DNA of 17,320 nt from Candidatus Methylomirabilota bacterium (GCA_046726415.1 JBKPAK010000001.1:1-17320); one strand, 5' to 3'; positions 1,796-8,527 are shown, numbered from the stretch's first letter. Program-made: numbers and translations. Notes: generated by a model from the sequence alone, not told the origin.

Positions 1796-2827
1796 ATGCA
1801 GCTCGGCATGATCGGACTCGGTCGGATGGGCGCCAACATGGTGCGGCGCCTCATGAAAGCAGGCCACGAGTGCGTCGTCCACGACCTCAGCGCGGCGGCC
1901 ATCCAGGAGCTGGCCAAGGAAGGTGCCACCGGCGCGGCGTCCCTGGACGACTTCATTGGACGGCTGAAGAAACCCCGGGCGGTCTGGCTGATGGTGCCAG
2001 CCGCCGTGGTCGATCAGACCCTGTCCGGGCTGGCCGGGAAGCTGGAGCCCGGTGACATCGTCATCGACGGTGGAAACTCCTATTACCACGATGACATCCG
2101 GCGCGCGGCCGAGCTCCGGCCAAAGGACATCCACTACGTAGACGTGGGCACCAGCGGCGGCGTGTGGGGCCTCGAGCGTGGCTTCTGCCTCATGATCGGA
2201 GGCGAGTCCACCGTGGTCCGCCACCTCGATCCGATCTTCGCCACCCTCGCCCCGGGGCTCGGCGACATACCGCGCACACCCGGGCGGGAAAAGGTCGGCG
2301 GGACGGCCGAGCACGGCTATCTCCACTGCGGACCGAACGGGGCCGGCCACTTCGTGAAGATGGTCCACAACGGCATCGAGTACGGGATCATGGCCGCCTA
2401 CGCCGAGGGACTGAACATCCTCCACCACGCCAACGTGGGCAAGCGGAAGCAGGAGATCGACGCCGAGACTACCCCTCTGCGCAACCCCGAACACTACCAG
2501 TATGACCTGAACCTTCCCGACGTCACCGAGGTGTGGCGTCGCGGGAGCGTCATCGCCTCCTGGCTTCTCGACCTCACCGCCATCGCTCTGCTGGAGAGCC
2601 CGGATCTCGCGAAGTTCGCGGGTCGCGTCTCGGACTCTGGTGAAGGGCGTTGGACGGTGATGGCCGCCATCGACGAGTCGGTTCCCGCCCCGGTCCTCAG
2701 CACCGCGCTCTACGCGCGTTTCAGCTCGCGAGGCGAGGCCGACTTTGCCAACAAGCTCCTGTCGGCCATGCGGTACGAGTTCGGCGGCCACCTCGAGAAG
2801 GCGGGCGGTCCCGCGACGGGGGCGTGA
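1796..2827 (+). CDS. gnd: 6-phosphogluconate dehydrogenase, decarboxylating (short-chain GntZ/YqeC type, probably NAD+-preferring)
   Basis: [12 protein letters not shown]ossmann start, [45 protein letters not shown]. Good RBS before ATG 1796. Confidence 0.96.
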
Positions 2828-4215
2828 TGGCCGCGCCGCACGCCGACGCGCTGGTCTTCTTCGGCGCCACCGGCGATCTCGCCTATAAGCAGATCTTCCC
2901 CGCCCTCCAGTCCATGGCCGGGCGCGGCCATCTCACCGTGCCGGTGGTCGGTGTGGCCAAGGCCGGCGAAGCCCTCGATCAGCTCCAGGCTCGCGCCCGT
3001 GACAGCGTCGAGAAGCACGGCGGTCTCGACAAGGCCGCCTTCGCGAAACTGATGAGCCTGCTGCGCTACGTCGACGGCGACTATCGCGACGCGGCCACCT
3101 TTCAGAACCTGCGAAAGATGCTGGGAAGCGCCTCGCGACCTCTGCATTATCTGGCTATCCCGCCGAGCATGTTCGCGGTGGTCGCGGAGGGCCTGGCCAA
3201 GGTGGGCCTGGCCCAGGATGCCCGTGTCGTGGTCGAGAAGCCGTTCGGACACGATCTGGCCTCCGCGCAGGCGCTCAACCGCACGCTGCACCAGGTCTTT
3301 CCGGAAAGCGCGATCTTTCGCATCGATCACTATCTCGGCAAAGCCCCCGTGGAGAACTTGCTATTCTTCCGATTCGCCAATACCTTCCTGGAGCCGCTCT
3401 GGAACCGCGACTTCGTGGAGAGCGTCCGGGTTACCATGGCCGAGAGCTTCGGCGTGGAGGGACGCGGCCACTTCTATGAAGAAGCCGGGGCCATCCGGGA
3501 CGTCGTCCAGAACCACATGCTGCAGGTGGTCGCTCTCTTGGCCATGGAACCGCCCATCAGCAGCGATCCGGAATCGATCCGCGACGGCAAGGTCCGGGTA
3601 TTCAAGGCCATGCGGCCCCTCGATCCGGCCAACATTGTCCGCGGGCAATTCCGCGGTTATCGCCAGGAGCCCGGAGTGGCCCCCGACTCGCAGGTGGAAA
3701 CGTTCGCCACCCTGCGGCTCTTCGTGGACGACTGGCGCTGGGCCGGCGTCCCCTTTCACATCCGAGCGGGCAAGAATCTCCCCGTCACCGCCACCGAGGT
3801 GGTGGTCCAGCTCAAGCGCCCACCCCAGGTCGTCTTCAAGCGCATCGGCCCCGGGCCGCCCAACTATCTGCGATTTCGTCTGAGCCCGGATATCGTGATC
3901 GCGCTCGGCGCGTCTGCGCTGCATGCCACCGAAGAGCTCGACATCCAGGCCGTGGAGCTGGAGCTGACACGCCATCCCACGGCGGACTCCATGGCGCCGT
4001 ACGAACGCCTCCTGGGCTCCGCCGCCAGGGGGGAGGCGATCCTCTTCGCACGCGAGGACGAGGTCGAAGCCGCCTGGAAGGTGATCGATCCGATCCTCGG
4101 GGACGCGACTCCGTGTCATCTCTACGAACCCCACACGTGGGGTCCGGCTGAGGCCAACCAGCTCGCGCCCCCTGGCGGCTGGCATCCGTTGGAGGCGACC
4201 GTCGCCAATGGCTGA
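2827..4215 (+). CDS. zwf: Glucose-6-phosphate 1-dehydrogenase
   Basis: [41 protein letters not shown] overlap with the gnd stop. Confidence 0.96.
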
Positions 4216-4810
4216 GTCACACCATCAGCTCTGGCTGGTCCGGCACGGCGAGACGGAGTGGTCGGCGTCCGGCCAGCATACGGGCCGCACCGACATCCCC
4301 TTGACCCCGACTGGAGAGCGCCAGGCCGCGGCGTTGGGACGCCTCTTGGGCAAGCGCCCGTTCGCGCTCGTCTTGTCCAGTCCACTCGGTCGGGCGCTCC
4401 AGACGTGCCGCCTCGCGGGTTACGGTGACGTCGCGCAGATCACCGACGACCTTCGCGAGTGGGACTACGGCGACTACGAGGGTCGCACGACTGCGGACAT
4501 CCGGAAGGAGGTTCCCGGCTGGACCATCTGGGCCGGTCCCGTCCCCCATGGAGAGACAATCGACCAGGTGGCCGAGCGCACGCGGCGGGTCATCGACCGC
4601 GCCGTGGCCGCGAGCGGGGACGTCGCCCTCTTCGCCCATGGTCACGTGCTGCGGGTGCTCGCGGCCTGCTGGTTGGAGCTTCCGCCCCACGGGGGCCGGC
4701 TCTTCGCGCTGGGCACAGCGTCCCTCAGCGTGCTGGGATATGAGCACGAGGCACGCGTCATCAGCACCTGGAACCAGGACTGGCATCTCGTTCGAGTGGA
4801 GAACCCCTGA
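4208..4810 (+). CDS. Histidine phosphatase family protein (Gpm2/Rv3214- and Shb17-like; candidate sugar-bisphosphatase)
   Basis: [33 protein letters not shown] and FAHGHVLR motifs. Overlaps the end of zwf by 8 nt. Confidence 0.9.
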
Positions 4811-4821
4811 ATGACCGTGCG

Positions 4822-5979: not shown

Positions 5980-5983
5980 CCCC

Positions 5984-7624
5984 GTGAGTACCACGAGGCC
6001 GCTCACCCAACGCCCTGAATGGACGGCCCTGCGGGAGCACTTCCAGAAGATCCGCGACGTGCACCTACGCGCGCTCTTCACCGAAGACAGCGCGCGCGGC
6101 GAGCGGCTGGCCGTGGAGGCCGTGGGGCTCTATCTCGACTATTCGAAGCACCGCGTGACCGACGAGACGCTTCGCTTGCTCCTGCGGCTGGCCGAGGCCG
6201 CGGGGCTGCGGGCACGCATCGATGCCATGTTTCGCGGGGAGAAGATCAACGCCACCGAAGGACGGGCGGTGCTGCACGTGGCCCTGCGCGCCCCGCGGGG
6301 CCAGCGCATCCTGGTGGACGGCAAGGACGTGGTGCCCGACGTCCACGCCGTTCTCGACAAGATGGCGGACTTCGCGAACCGGGTGCGCAGCGGGGCCTGG
6401 AAGGGATATACGGGCAAGCGCATCCGCAACGTGATCAACATCGGCATTGGCGGCTCCGACCTCGGGCCGGTCATGGCCTACGAGGCGCTCCGCCACTACA
6501 GCCAGCGCGACATGACGTTCCGCTTCGTCTCCAACGTCGACAGCACGGACTTCGTCGAGGCGACACGCGATCTCGATCCCGCCGAGACGCTCTTCATCGA
6601 CTGCTCCAAGACCTTCACGACCCTGGAGACGATGACCAATGCGCACTCGGCGCGCGCGTGGAGCCTGGCCGCCCTCCGCGATGAGAAGGCCGTGGCCAAG
6701 CACTTCGTGGCCGTGTCCACCAACGCCGCCGAGGTGGCGAAATTCGGCATCGACCCCGACAACATGTTCGGCTTCTGGGACTGGGTGGGAGGGCGCTACT
6801 CGATGGACTCGGCCGTCGGCCTCTCCACCATGATCGCCGTTGGCCCCGAGAACTTCCGGGCCATGCTGGCCGGTTTCCACGCGATGGACGAGCACTTCCG
6901 AACGGCGCCCTTTGCCCAGAACCTGCCCGTGGTCATGGGCCTGTTGAACGTGTGGTACCGCAACTTCTTCGGCACGCAGACGGTGGCCGTGCTGCCGTAC
7001 GAGCAATATCTCAAGCGCTTCCCCGCCTACCTGCAGCAATTGACCATGGAGAGCAACGGCAAGCACGTGACCTTGGACGGCGCCCGGGTCGATTACGACA
7101 CCGGACCGGTCTTCTGGGGCGAGCCCGGTACGAATGGTCAGCACTCCTTCTACCAGCTCATCCACCAGGGCACCACGCTCATTCCCTGCGACTTCATCGG
7201 CTTCGGCCAGACGCTCAACCCTTTGGGCGAGCACCACGATGTGTTGATGGCCAACGTCTTCGCCCAGACGGAGGCCCTGGCCTTCGGCAAGACGGCCGAG
7301 GAAGTCAAGGCGGACGGCGTGCCCGACTTCCAGATCCCGCACCGCACGTTTGAGGGCAATCGGCCCAGCACGACGATCCTCGCCGAGCGCCTGACCCCGG
7401 AGGCGCTCGGCAAGCTGGTGGCGCTCTACGAGCACAGCGTCTTCACCCAGGGCACGATCTGGAACATCAACTCGTTCGATCAGTGGGGCGTCGAGCTTGG
7501 AAAGGTCCTGGCCAATCGCATTGCGCCGGAGCTGCGCGCGGCCCAGGAACCTTCGCTCACGCACGACAGCTCCACCAACACCCTCATCCGACGCTATCGC
7601 CGTCTCAGGGAGGTACGCTCATGA
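5984..7624 (+). CDS. pgi: Glucose-6-phosphate isomerase
   Basis: [59 protein letters not shown] start. Confidence 0.97.
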
Positions 7625-8527
7625 GCCTGGGCTACGCCAAACCCCTCTACATCTTGCCCTTCGATCACCGCGGGTCGTTCCAGAAGGGCATGTTCGGCTG
7701 GTCGGGAGCGATCAGCGCCGAACAAACGGCGGAGATCGCCAAGACCAAGCAGGTGATCTACGACGGCTTCAAGGCGGCGGTGGCCGGTGGCATACCCAAG
7801 GACCGCGCCGGGATCCTCGTCGACGAGCAGTTCGGCGCCGCAATTCTCGAGGATGCGGGCAAGAGCGGTTTCATCACCGCGGCCTGCGCGGAGAAGAGCG
7901 GCCAGGACGAGTTCGACTTCGAGTAGGCGAGGACTTCTGGCGCCACATCGAGCGCTTCAATCCCACGTTCTGCAAGGTGCTGGTGCGTTACAACCCGAGG
8001 GCGAGCGCGCCCTTAATCAGCGCCAAGCCGGACGCCTCAAACGCCTCTCGGACTTCCTGCACGGCAGCAGCCGCAAGTTCATGTTCGAGCTCCTGGTGCC
8101 AGCGGAACCCGCCAAGCTCGCCCGGGTTGGCGGAGACAAGAAGGCCTACGACCGCGAGTTGCGCCCCGGTCTCATGGCCCGCGCCATCCGCGAGCTTGAA
8201 GACAGCGGCGTCGAGCCGGATCTCTGGAAGATCGAGGGGCTCGAGCGGACACAGGACTGCGCCGACGTGGTGGCCGCCGCCCGGCGGAACGGGCGCCACG
8301 AAGTCGGCTGCATCATCCTGGGTCGCGGCGAGGACGAGAAGAAAGTCGATGACTGGCTGCGCACCGCGGCGGAGGTTCCCGGCTTCATCGGCTTCGCGGT
8401 GGGCCGGACGACCTTCTGGGATCCACTGGTCGCTTGGCGGGCCAATCGCATGTCCCGCGAGGCGGCGGTGGCGGAGATCGCGCGCCGGTACCGGCGCTGG
8501 GCTGACATCTTCCAGGGCGCGGCGTGA
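7621..8527 (+). pseudogene. DUF2090 / IolC C-terminal-like class I aldolase-fold protein, interrupted by two 1-nt deletions (pseudogene or sequencing error)
   Basis: ATGA overlap with the pgi stop. The protein is spread over three frames: [20 protein letters not shown]...EFDFE, then GEDFWRHIERFNPTFCKVLVRYNP, then EGERALN...DLWKIEG...GFAVGRTTFWD. Adding 1 nt at about 7925 and 1 nt at about 7995 restores a 302-aa ORF. Confidence 0.85.

Follow-up and report, generated by a model that had tools for sequence, protein, structure and literature searches.

Genes of the pentose-phosphate pathway (PPP) are clustered in several bacteria, for instance as tkt-tal-zwf-opcA-pgl in actinobacteria and as zwf-opcA-tal in cyanobacteria. 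Here we describe a 17,320-nt stretch of DNA from a Candidatus Methylomirabilota bacterium (GCA_046726415.1, JBKPAK010000001.1:1-17320; hereafter the window), on which gnd, zwf, tal and pgi lie on the plus strand between positions 1796 and 8527, together with a gene for a histidine phosphatase (HP) and one for a stand-alone protein with the domain of unknown function DUF2090. The locus resembles the known clusters in grouping zwf, gnd, tal and pgi, joined in related loci by pgl, tkt, rpe and rpiB, in one orientation. It differs from them by the addition of DUF2090 directly after pgi and of the histidine phosphatase, and because, in the related loci, genes for glycogen phosphorylase, debranching enzyme and phosphoketolase as well as pgm frequently adjoin the cluster.

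Pairs of an aldolase and a bisphosphatase that convert triose phosphates irreversibly into hexose or heptose phosphates are known from the archaeal and bacterial bifunctional fructose 1,6-bisphosphate (FBP) aldolase/phosphatase, and from variants of the ribulose monophosphate and Calvin modules with a sedoheptulose 1,7-bisphosphate (SBP) phosphatase (SBPase), where the genes are fba and glpX. The pair encoded in the window belongs to unrelated protein families and consists of two separate genes, with a LacD-like and a histidine-phosphatase fold, respectively. The DUF2090 domain (PF09863) has been described in fusions with the kinase IolC, for which Price et al. (2022) proposed a role as the 5-dehydro-2-deoxy-6-phosphogluconate (DKGP) aldolase of inositol catabolism, and these fusions are reported to be genetically linked to inositol use (PMC9007349). 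Among the histidine phosphatases, Mycobacterium tuberculosis GPM2 is reported to be a lithium-resistant, metal-independent FBP phosphatase (FBPase), validated both genetically and kinetically (Km 5.5 mM, kcat 187 per s), that sustains gluconeogenesis without GlpX; the same report ascribes FBPase and SBPase activity to yeast SHB17/YK23, to which GPM2 is 31% identical (PMC4535450). In another bacterium, the broad bisphosphatase Bbp, also of the histidine-phosphatase type, is reported to act on sedoheptulose 1,7-bisphosphate, fructose 1,6-bisphosphate and also glucose 1,6-bisphosphate, and an Fba/SBPase bypass has been documented there (PMC11005471).

We found in the window one version of a catabolic module for the PPP and glycogen that is widely conserved and apparently horizontally shared. 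It is most similar to that of a Rokubacteria (Methylomirabilota) metagenome-assembled genome (MAG), and stand-alone DUF2090 and GPM2/SHB17-like HP are regular members of this module beside Zwf, Gnd, Tal and Pgi. The parts belong to kinds that were known before: class I aldolase folds, FBPases of the histidine-phosphatase type and PPP operons. The literature search, with subscription journals mostly outside its coverage, found the DUF2090 family treated in its IolC-fused form only and returned no description of a stand-alone DUF2090 subfamily, of its position after pgi or of a cross-phylum module, and nothing relevant on a missing FBP aldolase or on IolC naming in these phyla. A first-pass annotation of the window had interpreted the locus as a candidate for a self-contained cyclic oxidative PPP with a non-canonical aldolase and bisphosphatase, an interpretation that is partly supported by the data presented below.

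Conservation of the gene neighbourhood across phyla

One genome per species was searched with an alignment of 17 stand-alone DUF2090 proteins, which yielded 565 confirmed stretches. The best-scoring 80 loci (L001-L080) were kept with flanks of up to 10 kb on each side, and neighbouring genes were identified by tblastn with the window proteins and with representatives of recurrent neighbour families. Judged by record titles, these loci represent at least eight phylum-level groups (Acidobacteriota, Planctomycetota, Verrucomicrobiota, Binatia, Rokubacteria, Nitrospiraceae, an Actinobacteria MAG and Alphaproteobacteria).

Conserved co-localisation, the absence of which would by the first-pass annotation's own test have refuted its proposal, was indeed observed: across many phyla, stand-alone DUF2090 lies beside pgi, gnd, zwf, tal and Gpm2-like HP. 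Of the 75 loci whose upstream flank reached 1.7 kb or more, 54 had a pgi gene on the same strand that ended no further than 120 nt before DUF2090. A gnd gene began within 1.9 kb after DUF2090 in 43 loci, out of 68 whose downstream flank was 2.2 kb or longer. Among PPP genes, the flanks of the 80 loci contained pgi in 57 cases, gnd in 54, zwf in 49, pgl in 37, tal in 33, tkt in 31, rpiB in 28 and rpe in 27. Other neighbours were HP (31), a ROK-type kinase (28), pgm (20), glgP (17) and the debranching enzyme gene glgX (14), followed by glk (13), the phosphoketolase gene xfp (10), acetate kinase (7), 4-alpha-glucanotransferase (7) and tpi (1). Only four loci, two of them short contigs, lacked any PPP or HP neighbour, and a PPP/glycogen neighbourhood was present in 76 of the 80. 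When at least 9 kb was available on both sides (n = 49), 46 loci had at least one kind of PPP gene and 33 had four or more. Since the neighbourhood recurs in most of the 80 loci, the gene arrangement is far beyond chance. The genes that lie downstream in the window (CHRD, thiolase, acyl-CoA ligase and M16 peptidase) occurred in none of the 80 loci, and the boundary of the module in the window was set on this basis.

The usual order elsewhere is (HP)-(glgP-pgm-malQ)-tal-(ROK)-pgi-DUF2090-(rpe)-gnd-zwf-pgl-rpiB-tkt. The order of the window, gnd-zwf-HP-tal-pgi-DUF2090, is common to L074 and, with additions, also found in L037 and L044. L074, from a Rokubacteria MAG, is the closest locus, with the arrangement TauE-DUF1634-gnd-zwf-HP-tal-pgi-DUF2090 and 74-87% amino-acid identity, and the named close relatives of the window HP and DUF2090 proteins likewise come from Methylomirabilota/Rokuibacteriota MAGs.

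The similarity of the whole module across phyla is unusually high. Compared with acidobacterial, planctomycete and verrucomicrobial loci, the window proteins were 70-81% (pgi), 65-78% (gnd), 65-75% (tal) and 60-78% (DUF2090 pieces) identical at the amino-acid level. In addition, plasmid pPNAP02 of Polaromonas naphthalenivorans CJ2 (L081, NC_008758.1 62771-75674), a cultured carrier, has tal-pgm-phosphoketolase-acetate kinase-tkt, gnd, DUF2090 and a glucoamylase gene. These cross-phylum identities and the plasmid copy suggest that the module has spread horizontally.

Pfam and NCBIfam scans of window open reading frames (ORFs) revealed no tkt, rpe, rpi, pgl or tpi gene, so the description of a self-contained cyclic system did not hold for the window. 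Other lineages carry pgl, rpe, rpiB and tkt within the cluster, and tpi was seen once, right after pgl in a Binatia cluster (L012, 7490-8449, plus strand). L055 encodes a 302-aa class II ketose-bisphosphate aldolase between rpe and gnd (11671-12579, plus strand; PF01116, 234.6 bits), which scores under every NCBIfam cut-off (FBP aldolase 212.5 against 343; cbbA subfamily 208.7 against 215.6). Because of this tpi in L012 and this aldolase in L055, steps of triose-phosphate recycling belong to the module. The presence of the class II aldolase in the same cluster as DUF2090 argues against a simple replacement of the canonical aldolase by DUF2090. No iol-type family, PF00316 FBPase, GlpX FBPase or phosphofructokinase (PFK) turned up when the 21 neighbour families that recurred and another 118 ORFs from the flanks were scanned.

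A type II NADH dehydrogenase (Pyr_redox_2 with NDH2_C) is encoded in or beside the PPP cluster in L017, L040, L041, L042, L044 and L068. The cofactor naming of gnd is in conflict, with one of its two NCBIfam models naming NADP and the other NAD, and the Polaromonas orthologue is called "NAD-dependent" by PGAP. The dehydrogenase and this last name hint that the module feeds respiration rather than the supply of NADPH.

The stand-alone DUF2090 family and the histidine phosphatase

The DUF2090 gene of the window (7621-8527, plus strand) comprises 302 codons if it is read through two frame breaks, which are described below. Its relatives at 50% identity clustering number 2,783 representatives with E ≤1e-3, including 585 with E ≤1e-30. 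Sequences from other phyla are 66-77% identical to the window read-through (77% for the L074 orthologue), and 67 columns are invariant among 101 sequences, with a mean column identity of 76%. Conservation of this degree is typical of a core (metabolic) enzyme.

The aldolase fold claimed in the first-pass annotation was recovered in an AlphaFold model, which was made for the intact L074 orthologue and not for the window protein itself. This model is a (beta/alpha)8 barrel (pLDDT 92.8, pTM 0.91). Its top structural match in the PDB was YihT, the sulfofructose-phosphate (SFP) aldolase (1to3, E 1.6e-13), followed by LacD tagatose-1,6-bisphosphate aldolases (template-modelling (TM) score 0.74-0.78) and a sulfohexulose-1-phosphate aldolase, with class I FBP aldolases slightly further off (TM ∼0.65). 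LacD and YihT are Schiff-base aldolases that act on ketose 1-phosphates and release dihydroxyacetone phosphate (DHAP). They are the best structural matches (E ∼1e-13 to 1e-12, TM 0.68-0.78), but they share only 14-21% sequence identity with DUF2090, and their operons serve lactose/galactose or sulfoquinovose instead of the PPP. LacD.1 (3myo) was also the only PDB sequence match to DUF2090 (E 0.0023). Lys119, Glu157 and Lys204 of DUF2090 are invariant in the 101 sequences and present in the window, and they align with the LacD.1 lysine in AIKFLL, glutamate in FLELL and lysine in VLKVE, respectively, the last of which is presumably the Schiff-base former. The AIKFLL lysine and the FLELL glutamate are the residues named as catalytic in LacD by Price et al. 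(PMC9007349). The modelled structure thus confirmed a predicted class I DHAP-dependent aldolase fold of the DeoC/LacD type. The window HP and DUF2090 proteins gave no match to PF00274, PF01116, PF00316 or PF03320, and since they match none of the canonical FBP aldolase and FBPase families, we refer to the pair as non-canonical.

Longer DUF2090 relatives (n = 19) were scanned for partner domains, and five had an informative partner, fused or immediately adjacent, with one representative each. P0378 combines a GlpX class II FBPase with DUF2090 (TIGR00330, 318 bits; cut-off 259) and P0416 combines a PFK with it. Further combinations were with a 6-phosphogluconolactonase (P0363), with a ROK kinase (P0107) and with PfkB kinases not recognised by the IolC models (P0384 and P0418). 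The GlpX and PFK partners, even if they are mere adjacencies, tie DUF2090 to enzymes by which FBP/SBP are formed or hydrolysed.

Public names place the stand-alone proteins in inositol catabolism. At JGI they (P0003-P0362) are called "myo-inositol catabolism protein IolC" or "5-dehydro-2-deoxygluconokinase" despite having no kinase domain, and NCBI names stand-alone relatives "DKGP aldolase domain-containing protein". If these names were taken literally, stand-alone DUF2090 would be an enzyme of the inositol pathway and its position in a PPP operon would be incidental, a reading that can also lean on the reported genetic link of the IolC-DUF2090 fusions to inositol use (PMC9007349). The two types indeed have in common the Pfam family, a predicted class I aldolase chemistry with DHAP as product, and the LacD-type lysine and glutamate. 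However, the window-type protein lacks the PfkB kinase domain and therefore does not belong to the IolC-DUF2090 type, and the IolC-aldolase model NF047869, with a cut-off of 600 bits, gave only 18.7 bits for the N-terminal piece from the window and 63.6 bits for the L074 orthologue. Among 135 DUF2090 records in a plasmid collection, two were stand-alone copies at 64-67% identity and the other 133 were below 60%; the matches listed below 60% (23 of the 133) were 28-32% identical, and 22 of these were annotated iolC. Moreover, the neighbours are PPP/glycogen genes in 76 of the 80 loci and not iol genes: no iol-type family was found among the scanned window ORFs, the 21 neighbour families or the 118 further ORFs, in agreement with the absence of iol genes from the window noted in the first-pass annotation. 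We therefore regard an inositol role as very improbable. By sequence comparison the window-type DUF2090 is a separate stand-alone subfamily, and its IolC naming is likely a systematic misannotation that would inflate calls of inositol catabolism in soil metagenomes.

The HP gene (4208-4810, plus strand) encodes a member of histidine phosphatase branch 1 (PF00300, 185.1 bits; cut-off 21.7), in which the catalytic RHG histidine, the HGH histidine and the acidic residue are all present. Among 22 module-linked sequences, E84, H146 and R149 do not vary. The closest solved relative was M. tuberculosis GPM2/Rv3214 (PDB 2a6p, E 7e-43), with yeast YKR043C/SHB17 (3f3k, E 3e-25) in second place, and an alignment showed that the motifs RHG, EW(D/E)YG(D/S)YEG and HGH (AHGH in HP) are common to the three proteins. 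The first-pass annotation had assigned HP a bisphosphatase fold. This assignment stands insofar as the closest characterised relatives are FBPase/SBPase enzymes, but HP falls below the cut-off of the Rv3214 equivalog and, on account of that score (181.5 against 226 bits, NF009993), is treated here as a relative of GPM2 and not as a member of its group. HP shares its superfamily branch with GPM2, SHB17 and Bbp, and the proven activity on FBP and/or SBP belongs to these relatives. Unlike them, HP is located inside a PPP operon and translationally coupled to zwf, a setting that the available parts of the reports on GPM2, SHB17 and Bbp do not describe. From its relatives, HP can be proposed to act as a metal-independent bisphosphatase (FBPase/SBPase). 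We also considered HP as a substitute for 6-phosphogluconolactonase; this was rejected since the fold is wrong and pgl is present in 37 of the 80 clusters.

Possible functions of the DUF2090-HP pair

The reading that we mildly favour is that DUF2090 is a DHAP aldolase for FBP and/or SBP and that, together with HP as bisphosphatase, it returns triose phosphates to fructose 6-phosphate (F6P) and glucose 6-phosphate (G6P). In such a scheme, Zwf and Gnd, both encoded in the window, would oxidise G6P with a cofactor that is uncertain, and Tkt and Tal, of which only the latter is encoded in the window, would convert pentose phosphates to F6P and glyceraldehyde 3-phosphate. DUF2090, as a class I (Schiff-base) ketose-bisphosphate aldolase, would then condense DHAP and glyceraldehyde 3-phosphate to FBP, and possibly also DHAP and erythrose 4-phosphate (E4P) to SBP. 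HP would remove the 1-phosphate to give F6P, or sedoheptulose 7-phosphate (S7P), and Pgi, whose gene overlaps DUF2090 in the window and abuts it in 54 of 75 loci, would return F6P to G6P for another round of Zwf and Gnd. We infer the substrates, the direction of flux and the action of DUF2090 and HP as a pair from homology and gene context, and these data do not distinguish FBP from SBP as the substrate.

Several observations weigh against this proposal. The literature searched gave no activity data for any stand-alone DUF2090. The 80 loci are the best-scoring of 565 and thus a non-random sample that is not phylogenetically independent. HP occurs within 10 kb in only 31 of them, and its score lies under the Rv3214 "acid phosphatase" equivalog cut-off; homology does not fix its substrate, because GPM2 and Bbp are broad-range enzymes. 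A tpi gene is absent from 79 of the 80 clusters. Since the L055 cluster encodes a class II ketose-bisphosphate aldolase beside DUF2090, and since the Polaromonas plasmid copy is an accessory module, DUF2090 need not be the sole FBP aldolase and may prefer another substrate. Each of the DUF2090 fusions is represented by one predicted protein, a methionine stands where native DUF2090 begins in P0378 and P0416, so that these two may be read-through calls of adjacent genes, and the ESM Atlas shows no large cluster of GlpX-DUF2090 or PFK-DUF2090 fusions. No PPP genes adjoin the stand-alone DUF2090 on a Deinococcus sp. KNUC1210 plasmid (L082, NZ_CP092189.1 299058-299987), which shares 64% identity with the L074 orthologue. 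Finally, the window copy of DUF2090 is frame-broken, so the aldolase step may not operate in this organism.

The main rival to an FBP-based return to G6P is a pair specific for SBP, in which DUF2090 would join DHAP to E4P and HP would release S7P, forming an irreversible, transaldolase-independent link in the non-oxidative PPP, as in riboneogenesis or a phosphoketolase variant. Such a role would suit the SBPase activity reported for SHB17, the second-closest solved relative of HP (PMC4535450), and the Fba/SBPase bypass reported from another bacterium (PMC11005471), as well as the location of HP directly upstream of tal in 8 of the 80 loci. Phosphoketolase and acetate kinase, in 10 and 7 of the 80 loci and both on the Polaromonas plasmid, point in the same direction, and the separate class II aldolase of L055 would free DUF2090 for another substrate. 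On the other hand, DUF2090 is linked most strongly to pgi (54 of 75 loci), which fits F6P as the product, and the presence of tal in the window and in 33 of the 80 loci would make a bypass unneeded. FBP suits the GlpX and PFK partners no less well than SBP does, and the closest relative, GPM2, has been validated on FBP in the report cited above (PMC4535450). An SBP-specific pair therefore seems unlikely to us, if worth serious attention. Rated a shade lower is a set of roles without any pairing, with DUF2090 as a DHAP aldolase whose substrate is another sugar phosphate or a damaged one and/or HP as a broad housekeeping, repair or regulatory enzyme acting on, for example, glucose 1,6-bisphosphate or 6-phosphogluconate. 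HP indeed often heads glgP-pgm runs (L001, L022, L035, L075) or pgm (L011, L071) instead of lying beside DUF2090, it is absent within 10 kb in 49 of the 80 loci, and both GPM2 and Bbp are reported to be broad-range, with Bbp hydrolysing glucose 1,6-bisphosphate (PMC11005471). For DUF2090, the Deinococcus plasmid copy, which adjoins an annotated L-glyceraldehyde-3-phosphate reductase, a GH1 beta-glucosidase and sugar ABC transporters, would be in line with such a role. Yet HP lies directly upstream of DUF2090, with no pgi in between, in 4 of the 80 loci, the very high conservation of DUF2090 speaks against a peripheral function, and its GlpX and PFK partners indicate bisphosphate chemistry.

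A different question is whether the DUF2090 step still operates in the organism of the window, where, as sequenced, the gene is not translatable. Its coding sequence is split over three segments on the plus strand: 7621-7926 in frame 1 (residues 1-101, coding to 7923 and ending in the stop codon TAG at 7924-7926), 7926-7997 in frame 3 (residues 103-126, with the invariant Lys119) and 8000-8527 in frame 2 (residues 128-302, with the invariant Glu157 and Lys204 and the GRG and GR loops). A DNA alignment with four orthologous loci placed single-base gaps in the window at GAGTA-GGC and AACCC-GAGGGC. The need for a repaired DUF2090 sequence, as stated in the first-pass annotation, was thereby confirmed as two 1-nt deletions, located at ∼7925/7926 in the Tyr102 codon and at ∼7997/7998 in the Glu127 codon, 72 nt apart. 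PF09863 scored 75.5 bits on the frame-2 ORF (7787-8527) and 27.2 bits on the N-terminal piece (7621-7923), with a gathering score of 27, compared with 112-137 bits in related proteins (P0003 112.2, P0363 131.8, P0492 137.4). An uninterrupted coding sequence is thus missing from the window and is present, at 302 aa, in L074 and P0244.

If the deletions are real, the window copy is a recent pseudogene, and the operon of this organism would consist of Zwf-Gnd-Tal-Pgi plus the phosphatase. The two frame breaks relative to four orthologous loci argue for this, as does the finding that no other gene of the 17-kb window is broken, which makes a generally error-prone assembly unlikely. Against it, the window read-through (with X at each break) retains 66 of the 67 family-invariant columns, and its three segments match the orthologues at similar identity. 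P0244, which is 93% identical, is intact, and so is P0243, a 99% identical fragment, at the second site; two indels 72 nt apart could also be a local consensus error. We consider loss of the step a real possibility, somewhat less than an even one, and it concerns only this copy, so that it is compatible with the favoured FBP/SBP aldolase function for the family. Programmed frameshifting at both breaks was rejected because it would require two separate -1 events and close relatives are intact.

As a broader and tentative proposal, to which we give rather less than even weight, stand-alone DUF2090 would be a widespread FBP/SBP aldolase family that has gone unrecognised. Its partner would be a metal-independent bisphosphatase of the GPM2 type, and the two would make up a branch dedicated to returning trioses to hexose within a horizontally mobile module. 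With this module, the oxidative PPP would be a complete cycle for the oxidation of glucose and glycogen in dominant soil phyla (Acidobacteriota, Verrucomicrobiota, Planctomycetota and Rokubacteria). If so, an uncharacterised protein family would gain a central-carbon function, a further sequence family would be added to the ketose-bisphosphate aldolases, and the module would be the first case, in the literature searched, of GPM2/SHB17-type FBPases in a conserved operon. Thousands of "IolC" annotations in metagenomes would be wrong. Pathway reconstructions would change for abundant, mostly uncultured soil phyla, where the cyclic oxidative PPP with glycogen breakdown, in some lineages together with phosphoketolase, would be a major route for sugars.

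Operon layout and flanking genes

The zwf, gnd, tal and pgi proteins of the window all scored above curated NCBIfam cut-offs. The operon starts with gnd, encoding a short-form decarboxylating 6-phosphogluconate dehydrogenase of 344 aa (1796-2827, plus strand; NF007161 465.1 bits, cut-off 271; TIGR00872 420 bits, cut-off 297), whose ATG at 1796 is preceded by an AAGGAG-like site. It is followed on the same strand by zwf for glucose-6-phosphate dehydrogenase (2827-4215; TIGR00871 464.8 bits, cut-off 400.6), HP, tal for a transaldolase of the mycobacterial type (4894-5979, with an alternative start at 4873; NF002881 461.9 bits, cut-off 367), pgi for glucose-6-phosphate isomerase (5984-7624; NF001211 855.9 bits, cut-off 492) and DUF2090.

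The six genes are co-oriented, and each of the junctions given in the first-pass annotation agreed with the sequence. The zwf start overlaps the gnd stop in TGATG (2825-2829), HP begins with ATG at 4208 in an 8-nt overlap with zwf (TGA at 4213-4215), and pgi starts with GTG at 5984 after a 4-nt gap (5980-5983) behind the tal stop (TGA at 5977-5979). DUF2090 overlaps pgi in ATGA at 7621-7624. The HP stop (TGA at 4808-4810) and tal are separated by a spacer of 83 nt (4811-4893, plus strand) with the ATG at 4894, which lies behind a GGAGGG located 7 nt before it, or of 62 nt with the ATG at 4873. This spacer holds a GC-rich hairpin with a minimum free energy of -39.4 kcal/mol, which is non-significant relative to shuffled sequences (z -1.47), and the equivalent spacer in L074 is only ∼15 nt long. 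An Rfam scan of the entire window gave no matches. Consensus scans of positions 1200-9500 gave no promoter-like sites and three terminator-like ones, which were confined to the minus strand and lay below the mean of shuffled sequences; the scans did not help to set the operon limits.

Directly upstream of gnd, the window encodes a TauE/SafE-family permease (418-1266, plus strand) and then a DUF1634 protein (∼1308-1658, plus strand), a pair that among the 80 loci is conserved beside the module in L074 only. Downstream of the module lies a gene for a CHRD-domain protein (8802-9392, plus strand), which was module-linked in none of the 80 loci. A NUDIX-like ORF of the NADH pyrophosphatase N-terminal type (16841-17320, plus strand) runs off the end of the window and has no link to the module elsewhere. 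Finally, a 334-aa ORF on the minus strand (12306-13310) without a Pfam or NCBIfam match overlaps at one end with the M16 peptidase gene upstream of it (13288-16164) and at the other with the acyl-CoA ligase gene that follows (10705-12309), and because of these overlapping ends it is probably co-transcribed with both.

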